From NCBI GenBank assembly GCA_024683775.1, contig GCA_024683775.1_4106.1: a stretch of DNA of 64,000 bases; one strand, given 5' to 3'. Within the stretch, counting starts at the first letter, position 1, and each line of letters begins with the position of its first letter. The translations under genes and the position numbers were made by a program. The DNA is from a phage. Shown piece by piece: positions 2,214 to 58,598 of this stretch. A model generated the notes under the pieces. The model was not told where the DNA came from. It worked only from the letters and a program-made list of their open reading frames with translations, and ran no database searches.

Positions 2214-3371
2214 TTATGCGTTATAACCAACAATGACTACAGTACAGCCAAATGGTTCAACAACTTTTAATACAACATTATCATCTGCATCGAGTTCAAC
2301 TTCACTTAGAACAACATGATTGTCTTCAGCATAGACTTGAACTTGTGGGAGGATTTTACCATGTTCACTGGCAGGAATGGACAGTGTGTACATAGAATCA
2401 CCATCATCTACCCAATCACTATCGGTATACGTGTTGTGATATGGAGTGGTGTGTAAGGTTTTACCAATAATACTCAATGAGATTGGAGCATCATCAGTTT
2501 GGTACACAGTAATATTACCGCTAGGATCTACAATGAGGTCTACTCCAATTTGGAATAAATCACCACTGTATGCTTGTAGAGCAAGATACTCACCACGCTC
2601 ATGCACAGTAGCTGGTACAGTTGCCATGTACATACCATCGGACGTGTACTCAAACTGAGATAGAAGTACTGAAGTAACGAAGTCAATATCTTCGCCGCTT
2701 TCTAGTATATCAAATTCAATAGTTTTGGTATTATATATGTCAGAAGTGAGTATGATGGTTCCTTTACCGGATTGAGTAATTGGATCAACTGGAATACTAA
2801 AAACATCATCAATTATTTCAGTTGTGAAGTACTCGGTTCCGTCAGGAAGTATAACGGTAATACGCATTCCAGTTGTATCAATGGCTGAACCTGCGTTGAA
2901 TAGGCGACCACCTACCAAATCATCACCTACGAACGTTGGGAACATAAGGATGTTGTCTATATCTCTATCTATAATCCCGCATTCAGGGGTGTACATATTA
3001 TATAGTGTTTGTGAACTACCTAGAATTGTTTTGTGCAAAAGAAACTTATAAACAAACCCAGTAGGATCTGATTCAAGTTTAGCATCTGAGTATCCTCTTA
3101 CGAAAAAAGAGTTCTTTCTTATTTCACTTAGGATTTGGTCATTAGTTTTGTTGTAGTTTAATTGATATCCTTGTATATCCTTTGTTGTAATTTGTACTTT
3201 ACGATAAATTACATTACTTACAGGATCAAGTAAATCATATAATCTATGGCTTCTCTGACGATAGATTCGAACATTTTTGAGTTTAGTCCCATCGTTGAGA
3301 ATTGCACCATCGACTACATATCCACATTCACCGAACTTATATTGTCCAGCAGCAGCAATCGATCTTGACAT
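2214..3371 (-). CDS. hypothetical protein (385 aa)
   Basis: long ORF with GGAGGG RBS; opposite orientation to the surrounding + strand block. Confidence 0.6.
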   Translation of the reverse strand: MSRSIAAAGQYKFGECGYVVDGAILNDGTKLKNVRIYRQRSHRLYDLLDPVSNVIYRKVQITTKDIQGYQLNYNKTNDQILSEIRKNSFFVRGYSDAKLESDPTGFVYKFLLHKTILGSSQTLYNMYTPECGIIDRDIDNILMFPTFVGDDLVGGRLFNAGSAIDTTGMRITVILPDGTEYFTTEIIDDVFSIPVDPITQSGKGTIILTSDIYNTKTIEFDILESGEDIDFVTSVLLSQFEYTSDGMYMATVPATVHERGEYLALQAYSGDLFQIGVDLIVDPSGNITVYQTDDAPISLSIIGKTLHTTPYHNTYTDSDWVDDGDSMYTLSIPASEHGKILPQVQVYAEDNHVVLSEVELDADDNVVLKVVEPFGCTVVIVGYNA

Positions 3372-3433
3372 TCATCCCTCCATTGGTATAATTATTATAA
3401 CGTATTTATTCTAGATAGGTAAAAAAGCACCTT

Positions 3434-3462
3434 GACTGAGTTGTGTTTTTGACGTATACTTA
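3434..3462 (+). promoter_or_regulatory. sigma70-like promoter (TTGACT-N17-TATACT)
   Basis: hexamers read directly upstream of the 3488 gene. Confidence 0.45.
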
Positions 3463-3487
3463 AATGGAATATCAATAAGGGGATTTT

Positions 3488-7204: not shown

Positions 7205-7624
7205 ATGCTTAGATTTATACATTACTTAATCAGTAAGGTTTTTGGGTATCAAACTGTGGAGGACAAGGCTAATCTAGCACACAAAATCTTCACAGCTTTG
7301 TGTTCTGGTGATTATCCTGTATTGAATAAGTACTGTAAATCTAAAGCATGTATTGACATAATGGCACTTCGTATATATGAGTGCCAGTTCAATAGATACA
7401 ATTTTTACCAGTACAGATATGATAAAGATGATTTTGATAGCATTGTAATGCTAAAGAATTTATGTAATAATAAAAAGAATATTCATATATCTGAATTTGT
7501 TGCATTGTATTTTTATTTAAAAAGTTCATTGTATATGAATTCAATGCAACGATTTGATACTAGAATTAATGTATTCAACGATAAAGAATTTTATATCTAT
7601 GATAAATTTTTAGATAAGGTTTAA
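7205..7624 (+). CDS. hypothetical protein
   Basis: 139-aa ORF. Confidence 0.45.
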   Translation: MLRFIHYLISKVFGYQTVEDKANLAHKIFTALCSGDYPVLNKYCKSKACIDIMALRIYECQFNRYNFYQYRYDKDDFDSIVMLKNLCNNKKNIHISEFVALYFYLKSSLYMNSMQRFDTRINVFNDKEFYIYDKFLDKV

Positions 7625-7625
7625 T

Positions 7626-8123
7626 ATGACGACTGTTTATATTGATAAACGCTTGGGAGTATTACTTACTGATTCAAAAGTGACATCAACTGAGCAACGT
7701 TCATTTTTGAACCTATTCCCGTTGAAGCCAAAACTTAGTTATGGTGTAGTTTCACAAAAAACATTGTATGTACACGACCGACTGTTTAGTGCTTGCGGTG
7801 AAGTTAGTGAAATTAACAAAGTACTGAGATACTTGATTTCACAAGAGACTGTGATACCAGACCGCAAGGCGAGTTGTCACTGTGTTCTTGTGTCAAAAGA
7901 TTACATCATTCACTTAATCGTTAATAAGGGTAAGTTTACCAAGAAGATTGATTATCTCCATAATGATTATACATTCTTTATGGGTAGTGGTGGTGAATAC
8001 ATGCTTGATGCAGCAGTACATGAAGAGTATAATACTCTTCTTGATAAGGTATTTGATACCTTCATGGATGTTCATAACCATGATATCTATACCGATGATA
8101 ATATTAATGTATACCGTTTTTGA
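7626..8123 (+). CDS. hypothetical protein
   Basis: 165-aa ORF. Confidence 0.5.
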   Translation: MTTVYIDKRLGVLLTDSKVTSTEQRSFLNLFPLKPKLSYGVVSQKTLYVHDRLFSACGEVSEINKVLRYLISQETVIPDRKASCHCVLVSKDYIIHLIVNKGKFTKKIDYLHNDYTFFMGSGGEYMLDAAVHEEYNTLLDKVFDTFMDVHNHDIYTDDNINVYRF

Positions 8124-8145
8124 TTTCATTCATTAGGAGAAGTAA

Positions 8146-9111
8146 GTGAAAAAGCTTGATTTAAATGCAATTTCTGAAGAAGTACTGGATGAGTGTTTTG
8201 CTAGTGAAGAAGTCAACGTATTAGAGGCTCTTGATTCCGTCGAAGAAGAAGAACATGACGGTCACAAGTTTGAGAAACCAAAAACAGGTATCAGCTTAAC
8301 TCGCCCTAAAGGGATAACGAATGAAATGCTCATCCAAGCAGTGCGTGATGGTATTGACGTTGAAAAGAACATTGACCTTTTGGTTCGCTACAACTATCCA
8401 ATGGTAGTAAGTGTTGCACGTAAGTGTACATGTTTTATCCCATTTGAAGATAAGATTTCTTATGGTGTTGAAGGTTTAATGCGAGCAATTCATACGTTCG
8501 ACACTACCAAAAATGTTAAGTTCATTACATATGCAACAACAACTGTGTACATGACAATCTATAACGAAAGTGCAGATGCTAATTATCTAGTGCATTTCCC
8601 ACGTTATATGAGTGTTAATAACATTTATGTGAAACGTTGTGTAGAAGAGTATCAAAGGAAACATGGTAAATACCCAACTCCTGAGATGGTGTCAAAAGAG
8701 ACTGGTATTGAGATTCAACACGTTAAGAATTGTCTAACTTACAGTAACACTTATGTAGCATTGAATATGAAAATGAGTAATGATTCAGAAAGTACATTAT
8801 CTGACATTGTTACTTCAGTTGAACCTGATTACAACTTAGGCGTAGAAACTGTCAGTACCCCACTGGTACAAAGTATTGCAGAAATGATGAGTAACCTATC
8901 TGCCAAAGACCGTGAATTGATTGAACGTGTACATGGTATTGGTTCTTATTCTGAACCCGAAACGCTACGAGAAATCATTGAGAGTGGTTTTGAAGATGAG
9001 AAGGGTAAGGTCATGACTGCTCGTTCTTCATTGCACCGTAAGTACTCTGAAGCAATGGAACGACTGCGTAAGATGGTTAAGACAAAAGGTTATGAGTTCG
9101 AAGATTTTTAA
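8146..9111 (+). CDS. sigma-70-family RNA polymerase sigma factor-like protein
   Basis: region 2-like block GLMRAIHTFD...KFITYAT and C-terminal region 4-like HTH (MTARSSLHRKYSEAMERLRK); GTG start with GGAG RBS. Confidence 0.6.
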   Translation: MKKLDLNAISEEVLDECFASEEVNVLEALDSVEEEEHDGHKFEKPKTGISLTRPKGITNEMLIQAVRDGIDVEKNIDLLVRYNYPMVVSVARKCTCFIPFEDKISYGVEGLMRAIHTFDTTKNVKFITYATTTVYMTIYNESADANYLVHFPRYMSVNNIYVKRCVEEYQRKHGKYPTPEMVSKETGIEIQHVKNCLTYSNTYVALNMKMSNDSESTLSDIVTSVEPDYNLGVETVSTPLVQSIAEMMSNLSAKDRELIERVHGIGSYSEPETLREIIESGFEDEKGKVMTARSSLHRKYSEAMERLRKMVKTKGYEFEDF

Positions 9112-11507: not shown

Positions 11508-11535
11508 TTGACATAAGATATCAGTACTGTATAAT
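11508..11535 (+). promoter_or_regulatory. sigma70-like promoter TTGACA-N16-TATAAT with CAGTACTG spacer
   Basis: consensus hexamers read directly; followed by ~90-nt leader before the 11629 gene. Confidence 0.6.
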
Positions 11536-17060: not shown

Positions 17061-17252
17061 ATGTTGATTTATCAATGTGATAACATTCGTGTTATGCAGC
17101 ATCCCTACTTACAAATCTTTGATGTGCAGCAGTATATGGAAGGTGATGATCCAAGAACCTATGGTCGTAAGTATGATTACTTCACTGTAAAGCAGTGTCG
17201 TGACATCAAAGAAGTACGACAATTAGTTCAAGAACTTCAAAATAAAGGTTGA
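17061..17252 (+). CDS. hypothetical small protein
   Basis: ATG at 17061 with GAGGA RBS. Confidence 0.4.
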   Translation: MLIYQCDNIRVMQHPYLQIFDVQQYMEGDDPRTYGRKYDYFTVKQCRDIKEVRQLVQELQNKG

Positions 17253-34086: not shown

Positions 34087-34163
34087 GATAAAATCTCCTT
34101 GTGTTATACTTTATTTAATCATTTTATAATGTACAATTTTACAGCGATTTAATTGAGGTACTC

Positions 34164-54263: not shown

Positions 54264-54307
54264 ATTCCCTCCCTTATTCATTATACTATATTTAATCAAA
54301 AAGAAAA

Positions 54308-54327
54308 GCCAGTACTCAAGTACTGGC
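54308..54327 (-). terminator. array cassette hairpin
   Basis: GCCAGTACTCAAGTACTGGC perfect inverted repeat. Confidence 0.5.
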
Positions 54328-54333
54328 CTGTAT

Positions 54334-55470
54334 TTAAATTATTGTTGGTAATGGTAATGGTATAAATTCATCACTCGATGGCAAACCATATAACGTAGTT
54401 GCATTTCCAGAATAATACCATCCAGTTGAATCTTGCACTATAGATAGATAGGCTAACGATACCACCTTTGTTATATCATTAAACCCGTGTGGTACTTCTT
54501 TGAATGCAGATGAATATTCAACACCAGGATCACCAGAAGATAGTGTATTGTTAGTACCAGCATAATATAAAGTATTGCCATCTGTGCTTATAGCAAAAGA
54601 AAGAACAGAGTTATTCATATCACTCCACAAATCCCTAAACCTGCCTCTATATCCGGTTAATTCTGTATACGAATATACGTTTGTGGTATTTGAAGAAGAA
54701 TTACCTAGTTGATAATTTCTATTTTGACCTGCTATAACATATCTAGTGATACCATTAGTATCATAATATAATATACCAGAGTTTAATGTTGACATACCAA
54801 CTGCACATTCGGATGCAAATTCGGGAGCAGAGTACAAATTATAAGAAGTTAAATTTGTGCTAGTACCCAATGCTCCAGTATTGCTTATACCACAGCGGTA
54901 GTAACCACCAGTAGTACTAGAATATATAGTACCAGATAGAGAAGTGTAGAATTTTGAAACATTTGACGCAACTAATACAGCATTAACTTTGCTTGTTGAA
55001 CCACCAAATGATTGGTTATTATCATATCCTTTAGCATATAATCTATTATCATTTGTAAGTAATCCTACACAATAATAAGTTATTTTCATTTCACGAACTG
55101 TGCTTAGATTCACTGCACTAAATTGTGTCGTAACATCTTTCCATGTAACAACTTTAGAACTTGTCGAACCACCAGATTCAAACCATTGATCACCACAGTA
55201 GAAAATTTTATTATCTACAGTTAATACAACGCATACTAAATTACTAGCACAAGCAAACTTAACATCATCTCTAACTTTAGTCCACTCGGTTACATTCACT
55301 ATAGTATCAGTTCCTATACCTAATTTGCCATACGCATTATTACCACGCACCCATAATTCATTATCCTCGGTTATTAGTAATAATGAATTAGCACCTGCAA
55401 CAATATCACGTATTTTTAGTTTATCTGGTGCTACGTTCCCGTACTTAACCATTCTTGCAAAAGGTAACAT
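54334..55470 (-). CDS. MLPF-leader paralog A18 (VKYGN subtype), first gene of the array
   Basis: N-terminus MLPFARMVKYGN; extended -10-like TGATATAAT and AAGGAG RBS upstream. Confidence 0.65.
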   Translation of the reverse strand: MLPFARMVKYGNVAPDKLKIRDIVAGANSLLLITEDNELWVRGNNAYGKLGIGTDTIVNVTEWTKVRDDVKFACASNLVCVVLTVDNKIFYCGDQWFESGGSTSSKVVTWKDVTTQFSAVNLSTVREMKITYYCVGLLTNDNRLYAKGYDNNQSFGGSTSKVNAVLVASNVSKFYTSLSGTIYSSTTGGYYRCGISNTGALGTSTNLTSYNLYSAPEFASECAVGMSTLNSGILYYDTNGITRYVIAGQNRNYQLGNSSSNTTNVYSYTELTGYRGRFRDLWSDMNNSVLSFAISTDGNTLYYAGTNNTLSSGDPGVEYSSAFKEVPHGFNDITKVVSLAYLSIVQDSTGWYYSGNATTLYGLPSSDEFIPLPLPTII

Positions 55471-55520
55471 ATTTCTTCTCCTTTATTCATTATATCATAT
55501 TTACCTCAAAAAGAAAACCC

Positions 55521-55549
55521 TTGACACCCTTTCAGTACTGATGTACTAT
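55521..55549 (+). promoter_or_regulatory. sigma70-like promoter TTGACA-N17-TACTAT in the divergent hub
   Basis: hexamers read directly, 25 nt upstream of the first mini-protein gene. Confidence 0.5.
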
Positions 55550-55574
55550 AGAAGGAATATAAGGAGAACTGCAC

Positions 55575-55802
55575 ATGACAAATACTTTTAAGTACTACCT
55601 CAATACTCTAAATGAACTAGAGTACGCGAAGTTTCTCGCGGATAGTTCGTGGCTAATTGAGCTAAAAACACATAACAGTACTGGATGTAACCTTATGCTG
55701 AACAATGCACTTGATACCCTTGTAGTGAGTATTTTACACAGCACCATCTGCGGGGATAGCAATAAACAATTATCAAAAATCTTAGTACTGGTAGCTCTAT
55801 GA
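55575..55802 (+). CDS. mini-protein paralog C1
   Basis: 75 aa; N-terminal MTNTFKYYLNTL; AAGGAG RBS. Confidence 0.5.
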   Translation: MTNTFKYYLNTLNELEYAKFLADSSWLIELKTHNSTGCNLMLNNALDTLVVSILHSTICGDSNKQLSKILVLVAL

Positions 55803-56011
55803 ACACTATGAACATTGAACAGTACTACATTGATGCACTACCAACAAAAGGTCTACGAGAAAGCCTACTGTATACACAAAATAATTATATAAACTTCAAA
55901 CATTGTCCTAAACTCTTGAACTCGTACAGGAATAATAAAATAAGAAATGCTGTACAAGGGGTAGAAAGTATGCAATACTATTACATCCTAACCCTTTTAA
56001 TCGAGCACTAA
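55799..56011 (+). CDS. mini-protein paralog C2
   Basis: 70 aa; N-terminal ...EQYYIDALP; ATGA overlap. Confidence 0.5.
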   Translation: MNTMNIEQYYIDALPTKGLRESLLYTQNNYINFKHCPKLLNSYRNNKIRNAVQGVESMQYYYILTLLIEH

Positions 56012-56012
56012 T

Positions 56013-56198
56013 ATGTATAAAGAATTCTACTGTAGTAAGCTGCACAAACAATACAGAGATTCATTTCCCAATGAACCTATGGATATGAATAGTCCCTTTT
56101 ATAAATTTGACTTCAGACTGGAGACACGTTATGCAATAGAACATCAATTTCCTGAAACTAAGTACTTATCTATCATGAACCTCATCTTTAAGTTCTAA
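56013..56198 (+). CDS. mini-protein paralog C3
   Basis: 61 aa; N-terminal MYKEFY. Confidence 0.45.
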   Translation: MYKEFYCSKLHKQYRDSFPNEPMDMNSPFYKFDFRLETRYAIEHQFPETKYLSIMNLIFKF

Positions 56199-56209
56199 AA
56201 GAGTACTAT

Positions 56210-56422
56210 ATGAAAACTATGAACATACACCAGTACTACTTAGATATTCTCCCTAAAGATGTACAGTTCATCCTTAAACAAGAATACAGTACTTTAAAAA
56301 ACCTTAAAAGAACCGCACCGAATGTATTAATCCTGCACCAAGAAAATGTAGTTGATAATATTCTACAAGGTGTACCAGGGACCGAGTACTTTAACATAAT
56401 AAGGCTAATTACATTACCATGA
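56210..56422 (+). CDS. mini-protein paralog C4
   Basis: 70 aa; close relative of C2. Confidence 0.5.
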   Translation: MKTMNIHQYYLDILPKDVQFILKQEYSTLKNLKRTAPNVLILHQENVVDNILQGVPGTEYFNIIRLITLP

Positions 56423-56604
56423 ATCATATATTATACTATTACCAAAATCTATCCGACAGGGACAAGTACACCCACAACTCCAATGTATGGTACTACAAAC
56501 GCGGTAGTATAAGAGACAAACAACATTACTTCTGTATTGCTATAAAAGAAGCACTAACAACTAAGTACACGTACAGAGCAGTACTGAAACTTATTGATAT
56601 GTAA
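56419..56604 (+). CDS. mini-protein paralog C5
   Basis: 61 aa; C-terminal YTYRAVLKLIDM. Confidence 0.45.
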   Translation: MNHILYYYQNLSDRDKYTHNSNVWYYKRGSIRDKQHYFCIAIKEALTTKYTYRAVLKLIDM

Positions 56605-56614
56605 AGAGAATACT

Positions 56615-56797
56615 ATGAGCATTGAATTGTACTTAAGTAAATTACAGCCTGGCGATAGATTCATCTACAATAAGTTCGAATTCAACTACAAGAACGGGAG
56701 CAACAAATATCGTCGAGGATACCTATATACAAGCACAAGAGATGCACAAAACGAAAAGTACACATACAGAGAAGTACTTAAACTAATCTCTATTTGA
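56615..56797 (+). CDS. mini-protein paralog C6
   Basis: 60 aa from ATG 56615; C-terminal YTYREVLKLISI. Confidence 0.45.
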   Translation: MSIELYLSKLQPGDRFIYNKFEFNYKNGSNKYRRGYLYTSTRDAQNEKYTYREVLKLISI

Positions 56798-56805
56798 GGT
56801 AATAT

Positions 56806-56991
56806 ATGAATACATTTGAGTACTATACAAATAAACTATCTATGCCTGAAAGATCTCATCTCTATGTGTGGAGAAATGCGTATAAAAGCGGCAATAAACT
56901 TATACAAAGAAATTCCCTTACAGTGTGTACAAATTTAATTAAAGCAGAGTACCGCACATATATTGAAGTACTCAAACTGATAGCAATATAA
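56806..56991 (+). CDS. mini-protein paralog C7
   Basis: 61 aa; MNTFEYY...EVLKLIAI. Confidence 0.5.
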   Translation: MNTFEYYTNKLSMPERSHLYVWRNAYKSGNKLIQRNSLTVCTNLIKAEYRTYIEVLKLIAI

Positions 56992-56999
56992 GGTACTCT

Positions 57000-57179
57000 A
57001 TGCAAGAATTCTATATCTATAACCTCCAGCACAAAGATAGATACAACTATAATAAATTCCAAAGGTACTACACAGTCGGGAACAAAAGAGATAAAAAACG
57101 TTATCTACTCTCGTGTACAGTAGAAGCACAAAACGAAAAGTACACGTACAGAGAAGTACTTAAACTAATCTTAATCTAA
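57000..57179 (+). CDS. mini-protein paralog C8 (59 aa, below ORF-track cutoff)
   Basis: hand translation MQEFYIYNLQHK...YTYREVLKLILI. Confidence 0.45.
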   Translation: MQEFYIYNLQHKDRYNYNKFQRYYTVGNKRDKKRYLLSCTVEAQNEKYTYREVLKLILI

Positions 57180-57186
57180 GGTAGAC

Positions 57187-57375
57187 ATGAACACTTTTGA
57201 GTACTACTTCAATAAACTAAACCACATAGAACAAAGTATGCACAACTCATTTATTCAGCACCATCAATCATCTGCACATGGAATTAAAAATATATCGATT
57301 GAGATTATCACTACCCGTGTACTGTCATCTGAACGTTATATGTATATTGATGTACTGAAACTCATCTCTATGTAA
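57187..57375 (+). CDS. mini-protein paralog C9
   Basis: 62 aa; MNTFEYY...DVLKLISM. Confidence 0.5.
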   Translation: MNTFEYYFNKLNHIEQSMHNSFIQHHQSSAHGIKNISIEIITTRVLSSERYMYIDVLKLISM

Positions 57376-57383
57376 GGAATAAT

Positions 57384-57563
57384 ATGCAAGAATACTATAT
57401 AGAACACATAAGCATTAAAGACCGTTTCATGTACGACACCTTCGTGAAGTACTACAACCTGGCAACTAATAGTACTAAAAATATTAATCTCAATAGCTGC
57501 ATTCATCACGCACTAACAAAAGATAATCCCTTCAGGGAAATCCTCGCTCTCGCATCTGTATAA
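57384..57563 (+). CDS. mini-protein paralog C10 (59 aa, below ORF-track cutoff)
   Basis: hand translation MQEYYIEHISIKDRF... Confidence 0.4.
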   Translation: MQEYYIEHISIKDRFMYDTFVKYYNLATNSTKNINLNSCIHHALTKDNPFREILALASV

Positions 57564-57574
57564 AGGAAAACCAA

Positions 57575-58234
57575 ATGAAACTTAATGCACACAGCAAACA
57601 ATACCTTAAGCACTTTAAATACCTCAACAGTATTCAAGCAGAATCTTTTACACCAGCATATACGTATCACCCAAATGTACTAAAGAAACGAAATAAAAAG
57701 AAAAAATCCAGAAATGTTCTCGTATCTAAGAACCTCAAATCGTACTTGAAGAAAAATAGTATAGCTCTTGCTTTTATTAATATCTATAATACTGATTTAA
57801 AAGTATTGAGTACTAATACCAGCACAAAAGCACTAAAGAATGCATCTATCTATATACACATTGATAATATCCCGTGCACTATAATTCTATCTTTCGGGAA
57901 TGTATACTTCTTCGGGAATTGTAATAGCACCCATGATATCAGTACTGCACAATTCCAAATCGGCGATATGTACTGCATGGGTTCAGAAAAAATACACGAT
58001 AACATGCACTTCTTCCAAAAGCAACGTACTAACGAAACTGATACAGTACTGCAATTCCTCAAAGAACTAGAACACAAAGAATTATCCGAGGAAGAAGAAT
58101 TCATGTACAGTACTGTAATCGATAATCCAGGACTCTATAAAAACGCGTACAAACTAACAAAACATGTACAGGAACTTATCAGTACTGATAAGAAATTTCA
58201 TCACCTCATTACGTATATTTCAAACTATGTATAA
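57575..58234 (+). CDS. hypothetical 219-aa protein inserted in the mini-protein array
   Basis: ORF with basic KKRNKKKKSR patch; unrelated to flanking paralogs. Confidence 0.5.
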   Translation: MKLNAHSKQYLKHFKYLNSIQAESFTPAYTYHPNVLKKRNKKKKSRNVLVSKNLKSYLKKNSIALAFINIYNTDLKVLSTNTSTKALKNASIYIHIDNIPCTIILSFGNVYFFGNCNSTHDISTAQFQIGDMYCMGSEKIHDNMHFFQKQRTNETDTVLQFLKELEHKELSEEEEFMYSTVIDNPGLYKNAYKLTKHVQELISTDKKFHHLITYISNYV

Positions 58235-58409
58235 AGAATACTACAAAGATAAAATCCCAATGCATCTACAACACCATATACCAAACGTTGCATTGGGTAT
58301 CAAAGATCACGCAAAGATAATGTTCCAACAATGTACTAAGTACACGCTCATATACGATGATAATCCATATATGCTGTACTACGTAGTAATGCTAACATTC
58401 AGGTACTAA
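58227..58409 (+). CDS. mini-protein paralog C11
   Basis: 60 aa from ATG 58227; MYKEYYKDKIP... Confidence 0.45.
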   Translation: MYKEYYKDKIPMHLQHHIPNVALGIKDHAKIMFQQCTKYTLIYDDNPYMLYYVVMLTFRY

Positions 58410-58410
58410 T

Positions 58411-58590
58411 ATGAATACTTATAAAGAATTCTACCTCTCGTACCTTAATTCCGATATAGTAACATCCAATACATTCAGTACTAAAATTATCTATAATGAA
58501 GTAATGAAAGAATGTATTAAAGGTGCTATTAACCCTAAAGATACGTATGACTTGTACTATGCAGTACTAACCCTTGTTTTCACGAAATAA
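58411..58590 (+). CDS. mini-protein paralog C12 (59 aa, below ORF-track cutoff)
   Basis: hand translation MNTYKEFYLSYL... Confidence 0.4.
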   Translation: MNTYKEFYLSYLNSDIVTSNTFSTKIIYNEVMKECIKGAINPKDTYDLYYAVLTLVFTK

Positions 58591-58598
58591 CACATAAT

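Follow-up and report, generated by a model that had tools for sequence, protein, structure and literature searches.

Back-to-back promoters of probably different temporal class in a divergent intergenic hub of an Asteriusvirus jumbo phage

Promoter classes have been described in several phages with which the region studied here can be compared. The late promoters of T4 (TATAAATA) depend on the sigma factor gp55, gp33 and the gp45 clamp. In the Rak2-like jumbo phages CBB and GAP32 three classes have already been predicted: an RpoD-like early class, a TGAAACG-type class and a late class with the motif ATAAATA (PMC5259590). RpoD-like promoters with UP-like A/T tracts are predicted before clusters of short hypothetical ORFs in CBB, for which homologues of gp33 and gp45 were reported as undetected (PMC5259590). 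Phage PA5oct is dependent on host RNA polymerase, and TTGAC/TATAATA motifs are found at the RNA-seq-mapped starts of many of its small early genes (PMC7318152). For Asteriusvirus, the literature that we searched yielded no paper describing early and late promoter classes, no transcript map, promoter description or palindrome report, and no 5'-end or time-course RNA data for any member.

We analysed a 64,000-nucleotide stretch of phage DNA (the window) that contains a short intergenic region, the hub, from which two arrays of paralogous genes diverge. Near the hub the window is 97-98% identical to the Escherichia phages vB_Ec-M-J, WPEC3 and fEgEco12 and ~90% identical to slurp01, G17 and 121Q, all of which are Asteriusvirus, jumbo coliphages of 350-385 kb. 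On this sequence identity we assign the window to Asteriusvirus (121Q/PBECO4/phAPEC6-like jumbo coliphages). A 301-bp query found the hub in 37 Asteriusvirus records, 33 of them with at least 80% coverage and roughly 88-93% identity, and a search of IMG/VR for more divergent hubs returned 121Q alone. The record of phage A4 opens exactly at the hub, but with A4_246 as the first locus tag, which shows a record simply re-opened at this point; we rejected it as evidence for a physical genome end. A first-pass annotation had placed a 104-bp gap between the start of the RCC1-like gene A18 at 55470 (-) and that of the first mini-gene at 55575 (+), with TTGACA-N17-TACTAT on the plus strand and TGATATAAT followed by AAGGAG on the minus strand; these coordinates were confirmed and every motif lies where it was said to be. 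The two arrays are also real, with 18 RCC1-like genes on the minus strand and 21 mini-genes together with one 219-aa gene on the plus strand. The features used below are as follows.

2214-3371, minus strand: lone RCC1-like copy outside the array
8146-9111, plus strand: phage-encoded RpoD-like sigma factor with sigma-70 regions 2 and 3 (phrog_351), in the early region
32962-55470, minus strand: RCC1-like array of 18 genes (Pfam RCC1/RCC1_2, phrog_4219)
54306..54329, minus strand: intrinsic terminator of A18, a 10-bp stem GGCCAGTACT/AGTACTGGCT followed by UUUUCUUUUU (-14.8 kcal/mol, z = -3.7)
54334..55470, minus strand: A18, an RCC1-like beta-propeller paralog of 378 aa with an ATG start; positional orthologue of phAPEC6 gp549
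55471..55574, no strand: divergent intergenic hub, 104 bp, between two ATG-started ORFs
55478..55483, minus strand: ribosome-binding site (RBS) AAGGAG of A18, 7 nt 5' of the ATG
55489..55497, minus strand: TGATATAAT, earlier read as an extended -10, within the conserved cassette and downstream of TAAATA
55498..55503, minus strand: TAAATA, proposed T4-type late-promoter core for A18, invariant in paralogs and orthologues
55508..55517, no strand: A-tract AAAAAGAAAA, at -48..-39 of the plus-strand promoter; on the minus strand, the T-run inherited with the RCC1 cassette
55521..55526, plus strand: -35 hexamer TTGACA of the putative rightward early promoter, the same in all 11 orthologous hubs, that of the distant EJP2 among them
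55533..55540, no strand: a palindrome, CAGTACTG, within the promoter spacer; 9/11 hubs have it, JNE01 and Turkey5 having lost it
55544..55549, plus strand: -10 hexamer TACTAT, 17-nt spacer from the -35; 10/12 consensus match
55561..55566, plus strand: RBS AAGGAG of the first mini-gene, 8 nt 5' of the ATG
55575..55802, plus strand: first mini-gene, an ORF of 75 aa with an ATG start
55575..60372, plus strand: operon-like cluster of 22 genes, 21 mini-genes (~60 aa) and one 219-aa gene, with gaps of at most 11 nt

We think it likely that the hub carries back-to-back promoters that differ in temporal class. On the right-hand side, a promoter of the host sigma-70 type, composed of the A-tract, TTGACA, a 17-nt spacer and TACTAT, would start a transcript near 55556 that runs through 22 tightly packed genes, presumably as an early unit, whose mini-gene products would be tiny, fast-evolving, non-virion proteins. 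Leftwards, a -35-less promoter of the T4 late type, with its TAAATA core at 55503-55498, would be read by host RNA polymerase carrying a phage gp55-like late sigma factor; the predicted transcript would start near 55491, cover A18 only and end at the hairpin 54329-54306. The minus-strand array would be made up of at least 13 tandemly amplified copies of an expression cassette, of which the leftward half of the hub is one. What the sequence shows directly is the motifs and their conservation, the repeated cassette, the depletion of TAAATA and its link to virion genes, and the terminators; we infer the sigma factor that acts at each promoter, the transcript starts and the timing.

Raw motif matches are weak evidence in this DNA because it is AT-rich (35% G+C), and a generic promoter scan of the window returned 65 sites compared with 64.4 expected in shuffles. 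Support for the hub motifs comes instead from their position, their conservation among orthologues and their membership of repeated motif classes. The hub as a whole is conserved no better than the flanking genes (9-14% divergence) and its conservation is focal. Searches for other kinds of element were negative: no credible RNA element came from ARAGORN over the whole window or from Rfam over 54-64 kb at a permissive threshold, the minus strand of the hub folds no better than shuffled sequence (z = -0.8) when examined for a terminator, and no further copies of its plus-strand half occur in the window.

The leftward half belongs to a cassette, found in at least 13 copies, that consists of a terminator, T-run, TAAATA, TATAAT, RBS and RCC1-like gene. 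TAAATA lies 25-30 nt 5' of the ATG in 13 RCC1 genes, and in 12 of 13 cassette copies it is preceded by a hairpin (GCCAGTAC-loop-GTACTGGC) and T-run; no gene lies upstream of the hub copy on its strand, and this copy has kept the T-run and not the hairpin. The 45 nt upstream of cassette RCC1 genes are 68% identical as compared to 42% for the coding sequences, and the 26-mer TAAATATAGTATAATGAATAAAGGAG occurs nine times at up to three mismatches, with none expected, always on the minus strand and inside the RCC1 array. The bare string TGNTATAAT has three minus-strand occurrences in the window, close to the ~4 of a rough hand estimate from composition. Real start codons of RCC1-like genes (54263, 49403, 45872, 44622 and 40963, minus strand) could be recognised by the conserved cassette and a common ATGTTACCTTT start; for several of the genes the longest-ORF starts, e.g. 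54299, 44790, 45769 and 41029, lie too far upstream. Public records name these genes "regulator of chromosome condensation".

Comparison of the copies distinguishes the two candidate elements for A18. TAAATA reads the same in all 13 paralogs and all 11 orthologues. TATAAT is present in 9/13 paralogs and 8/11 orthologues, its variants being TATAAC (twice) and TATAAA (once) among the former and TATAAC in JNE01 and Turkey5 and GATGAT in ph0011 among the latter. None of the 12 other cassette-bearing paralogs, which read TAGTATAAT or variants of it, has the TG of the extended -10. Thus the extended -10 that had been proposed for A18 exists as a sequence, with the full TGnTATAAT pattern at the hub, but it does not hold up as the promoter of A18: neither TG nor the ends of the -10 are conserved among copies in which TAAATA never varies. 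Probably TGATATAAT belongs to the initiation region; at most it would be a weak secondary -10 for sigma-70. Upstream of the hub TAAATA there is no -35-like hexamer, and the hub GTAAATA (55504-55498) agrees with six of the eight positions of the T4 motif and six of the seven positions of the ATAAATA predicted for relatives.

TATAAT is nevertheless also well conserved and could give sigma-70 activity. It is conceivable that the cassette genes have dual promoters, a weak -35-less sigma-70 promoter (TATAAT plus the upstream T-rich tract) combined with the late TAAATA, in which case the RCC1-like proteins would be made both early and late. Retention of TATAAT in most copies, the CTGGCT-16-TATAGT-like arrangement in the cassette copy at 43423 and the gain of TG by the hub copy alone are what such a promoter might leave behind, yet several copies that keep TAAATA have lost the last T of the -10, a -35 is missing, and 'tata' strings also follow ATAAATA at the unrelated late genes gp192c, gp231c, gp244 and gp253, which suggests that they form part of the late promoter's initiation region. 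We therefore hold dual promoters to be unlikely and favour a leftward promoter that is late only.

The behaviour of TAAATA across genomes points in the same direction. In the window, 150 kb of phAPEC6, RaK2 and GAP32, the motif is 2-10-fold depleted on both strands (observed/expected 0.10-0.49), and among the 15 hexamers that share its composition none is rarer. The copies that remain are placed selectively, with 47% lying 10-60 nt before an RBS-bearing start codon as compared to 4-14% for other hexamers. In phAPEC6, the genes preceded by TAAATA include those for the major head/capsid protein, the scaffold, the prohead protease, gp231c, a baseplate wedge protein, the 3323-aa gp245, the tail-fibre protein gp256 and the large terminase, and 22 of the 47 TAAATA-preceded genes encode virion proteins identified by mass spectrometry (Table 1, PMC7247149). 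The phAPEC6 protein gp237c matches the gp55-family late sigma factors (phrog_234, E = 8e-18); this match was obtained in the relative, as the gene lies outside the window. The features of a late-promoter class are thus found together, namely a -10 element without a -35, placement before virion and packaging genes with avoidance elsewhere, and, in phAPEC6, a gp55-family sigma. By these sequence measures, TAAATA behaves genome-wide as a late-promoter core.

Within the window, the 3-7-fold depletion of TAAATA on both strands stands beside the absence of several GC-rich palindromes: CGTACG, GGTACC, AGCGCT, AGGCCT and GTCGAC are each missing where ~6.5 copies are expected, which is consistent with restriction-site avoidance.

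Rightwards, the promoter reading advanced by the first-pass annotation is supported by the sequence. Alignment of 11 orthologous hubs, including that of EJP2, shows TTGACA fixed in all 11, and the -10 reads TACTAT, TACAAT, TAGAAT or TATAGT, so that its middle bases drift while TA..AT, the most important positions for sigma-70, is kept in 11/11. The hexamers with their 17-nt spacing are therefore accompanied by conservation, and matches to the sigma-70 consensus also exceed chance on this strand. At 11/12 or better, the plus strand of the window holds 20 matches as compared to 2.9 in Markov simulations, and it holds six perfect 12/12 matches as compared to 0.1; matches on the minus strand are at chance (two and zero, respectively). 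Most of the strong plus-strand matches lie 25-95 nt ahead of plus-strand genes. At the hub's own level of 10/12 the excess is only twofold (53 versus 27.5 simulated), so a lone match of this quality is ~50% informative. The A-tract, which spans -48..-39, is UP-element-like and may act as a proximal UP element.

Elsewhere on the plus strand the element GGG-TTGACT-TCGG-TCAGCCC-TTTTTGC-TATAAT recurs, at 17249, 20843, 21622, 24383, 29007 and 29590. Its terminator hairpin has a UUCG loop, and the -35 of an 11/12 sigma-70 promoter is part of the stem; terminator and promoter are therefore fused into one module between early genes.

A protein with sigma-70 regions 2 and 3 is encoded at 8146-9111, which allows another reading of the rightward promoter, in which this phage RpoD-like sigma rather than host sigma-70 would recognise it and the mini-gene operon would be delayed-early or middle. 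Compared with the 12/12 promoters, the hub promoter is indeed weaker, and its CAGTACTG stands in another register. However, its -35 is the perfect host consensus, and the second promoter class of relatives is predicted to have another -35, TGAAACG (PMC5259590). We judge recognition by the phage sigma to be quite improbable and favour a host sigma-70-type promoter facing the plus-strand array.

The genes served by this promoter form, most likely, a single 4.8-kb operon, to judge from the sequence. The 22 genes look like one operon because the gaps between them are at most 11 nt, too short to fit a further promoter, and within the cluster no intergenic promoter, terminator or late motif was seen. 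All 21 mini-genes align as one superfamily, in two BLAST clusters and with a partial match to phrog_11711, and their products share an N-terminal KEYY..L, a central F..CT and a C-terminal Y..L.LI motif. Substitutions fall most often at third codon positions, though also commonly at first and second positions, and this excess at the third position argues that the mini-genes are coding. The AlphaFold model of a mini-protein has four helices (pLDDT 91.6); it found no structural relative in the PDB, and BFVD returned members of its own family only. The mini-proteins have no Pfam match, and their sole PHROG match is to a family of unassigned function. In tblastn, the family is found in Asteriusvirus only. 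That these proteins act in early host take-over is a guess from genomic context.

The mini-gene cluster also differs in composition from other plus-strand genes, with negative GC skew (-0.15 to -0.22) and strong positive AT skew (+0.19) at 56001-60000, which probably results from proteins rich in N, K, Y, H, Q and T. Beyond it lies ~2 kb without long ORFs (60373-62407). Within this stretch lie a 53-bp tandem repeat (62201-62350; 2.8 copies), repeats of GTAATCA, the recurring motifs ATTTTGGGCG and GATAGTTCCCC and many copies of CAGTACTG. Strong promoters occur there on both strands, and one of them, a perfect 12/12 match at 61040, has no ORF behind it. The stretch has no Rfam or tRNA match, and could be an origin, a regulatory region or a non-coding RNA.

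The first-pass annotation had also suggested that two paralog families radiating from one hub constitute a single functional locus. Several lines of evidence argue against this. The minus-strand array contains at least 13 promoter cassettes with hairpin terminators and does not have the layout of a single transcription unit starting at the hub. A18 has its own terminator, with the next late-promoter cassette directly 3' of it, and the hub would therefore drive A18 only. The plus-strand cluster is plausible as one unit from the hub, but the two gene families do not co-occur as one locus would demand: EJP2 has at least 13 RCC1-like genes and an orthologous hub, with TAAATA leftwards and TTGACA-N9-CAGTACTG-TATAGT rightwards, but no mini-gene homologue. 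GAP32 has a single RCC1-like gene, on the minus strand and with GTAAATA, that diverges from plus-strand early genes. In vB_Ec-M-J, the mini-genes are 97-98% identical to those of the window while the hub is 8.7% diverged, and the hub-adjacent minus-strand gene encodes a different, 301-aa 'virion structural protein' (region 7267-8275, compared with 54334-55575 of the window); this change of neighbour together with the hub divergence marks the hub as a mosaic or recombination boundary. The products differ as well. The phAPEC6 virion contains the RCC1-like proteins gp003, gp005, gp006, gp007, gp009, gp010, gp077, gp549 and gp551, most of them detected by 1-5 unique peptides (PMC7247149); the mini-proteins gp540c-548c are not in that virion proteome (PMC7247149).

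A single bidirectional region, sigma-70-dependent on both sides with TGATATAAT as the extended -10 of A18 and co-expressing the arrays as one locus, is accordingly very improbable: TGATATAAT is a perfect extended -10 in the correct orientation and the arrays stay juxtaposed in 36 of the 37 hub-holding records, but TG is missing from the other 12 paralog cassettes, 4/13 paralogs and 3/11 orthologues have an altered TATAAT, a start ~7 nt past TATAAT would leave a leader of roughly 11-12 nt that begins inside the RBS, the minus strand has no excess of sigma-70 matches, A18 and each following gene or gene group have a terminator and a cassette of their own, respectively, EJP2 is missing the mini-genes, and RCC1-like proteins occur in virions where mini-proteins do not. 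One functional locus is not supported, and we regard the two arrays as separate modules that lie side by side by happenstance and probably differ in temporal class. As a divergent region of early and late promoters the hub is nothing unusual, the kind being known, and its leftward half is one copy of the amplified late cassette. For the RCC1-like genes, expansion by copying of whole promoter-gene-terminator cassettes offers a concrete picture of how a jumbo genome grows.

Two other divergent junctions were observed in the window. At 3372-3487 a late RCC1-like gene lies to the left and a plus-strand gene to the right, towards which two sigma-70-like promoters face. A weaker form of the same layout is found at 34087-34163, where the promoter scan gave no match of 9/12 or better. 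The late motif at these junctions is ATAAATA or TTAAATA.

The spacer of the rightward promoter contains the palindrome CAGTACTG, whose loss from two orthologous hubs indicates that it is dispensable for the promoter. Its core, AGTACT, is the commonest hexamer in the window, with 218 copies (observed/expected 10) that are densest at 55001-64000, and CAGTACTG itself is 70-fold over-represented there. Other 6-bp palindromes of the window are at or below expectation, several GC-rich ones being absent. AGTACT is enriched 4.7-8.5-fold in phAPEC6, 7-fold in RaK2 and 15-fold in GAP32; across Asteriusvirus, Alcyoneusvirus and Mimasvirus the over-representation is 5-15-fold. When the window is compared with phAPEC6, site conservation is 70% for AGTACT and 44-46% for control hexamers. 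Copies occur in all three reading frames, with about twice the density in non-coding DNA; their spacing is random (geometric) and almost even through genes, and the only flank preference is for C/G. AGTACT also forms terminator stems. The 12/12 promoters at 11508, 26833 and 61040 have CAGTACTG immediately next to the -10, and at the 15470 promoter the one-mismatch variant TAGTACTG is found.

Three explanations of this signal were rejected. A LexA box is contradicted by the inverted order of the half-sites and, by inspection, by the lack of any pair of copies with the needed spacing. Occurrence in all three frames and the higher density in non-coding DNA speak against a codon or dipeptide artefact, and the near-even spread through genes with geometric spacing against a promoter-specific element. 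No report of an AGTACT signal was found in the literature searched, and we know of no protein that binds or modifies this sequence. One may speculate that a phage-encoded protein binds or modifies DNA at AGTACT, as part of a genome-wide system that switches the hub and the strongest early promoters, although we consider this rather unlikely. Were it so, the system could serve early shut-off, in the manner of stoperators, or self-marking, either of which would be undescribed in virulent jumbo phages. The hub itself is ordinary, and the clade-wide AGTACT signal is likelier to lead somewhere new.

Another short sequence, the E. coli Chi octamer GCTGGTGG, was seen five times on the plus strand of the window and once on the minus strand, where a rough hand estimate for the plus strand is ~0.2. 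In GAP32, nine copies occur in 50 kb, ~41-fold above composition.

The uptake signal sequence (USS) of Haemophilus, the DNA uptake sequence (DUS) of Neisseria and the stoperators of mycobacteriophages are dispersed genomic signal sequences. By analogy, AGTACT would resemble them in being short, many-fold over-represented, present in all frames, able to form terminator stems as inverted pairs and apparently maintained by selection; it differs in being a palindrome in a clade of virulent phages. For the rightward promoter, the related phage PA5oct provides a parallel, and with it indirect support, in its TTGAC/TATAATA early motifs and small early genes, but it is of another family and host, and the spacer of the hub promoter holds the CAGTACTG palindrome. 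For the annotation of these therapy-candidate coliphages, the two classes supply a usable set of rules, in which TAAATA 25-60 nt before a start codon would mark late genes and consensus sigma-70 promoters would mark early blocks of small genes. The leftward class shares with T4 late promoters an AT-rich, -10-only element without a -35, situated a few tens of nt 5' of virion and packaging genes, avoidance of the motif elsewhere and a gp55-family sigma in the lineage. It is unlike them in that the core in this genus is TAAATA with a variable preceding base (A, T or G; G in the hub) and in that the gp33 and gp45 homologues are reported undetected in the relative CBB (PMC5259590). CBB and GAP32 have the same pairing of RpoD-like promoters and UP-like tracts before short ORFs with ATAAATA before structural genes; Asteriusvirus differs from them in that its late cassette and the RCC1-like gene have been amplified together, at least 13-fold.
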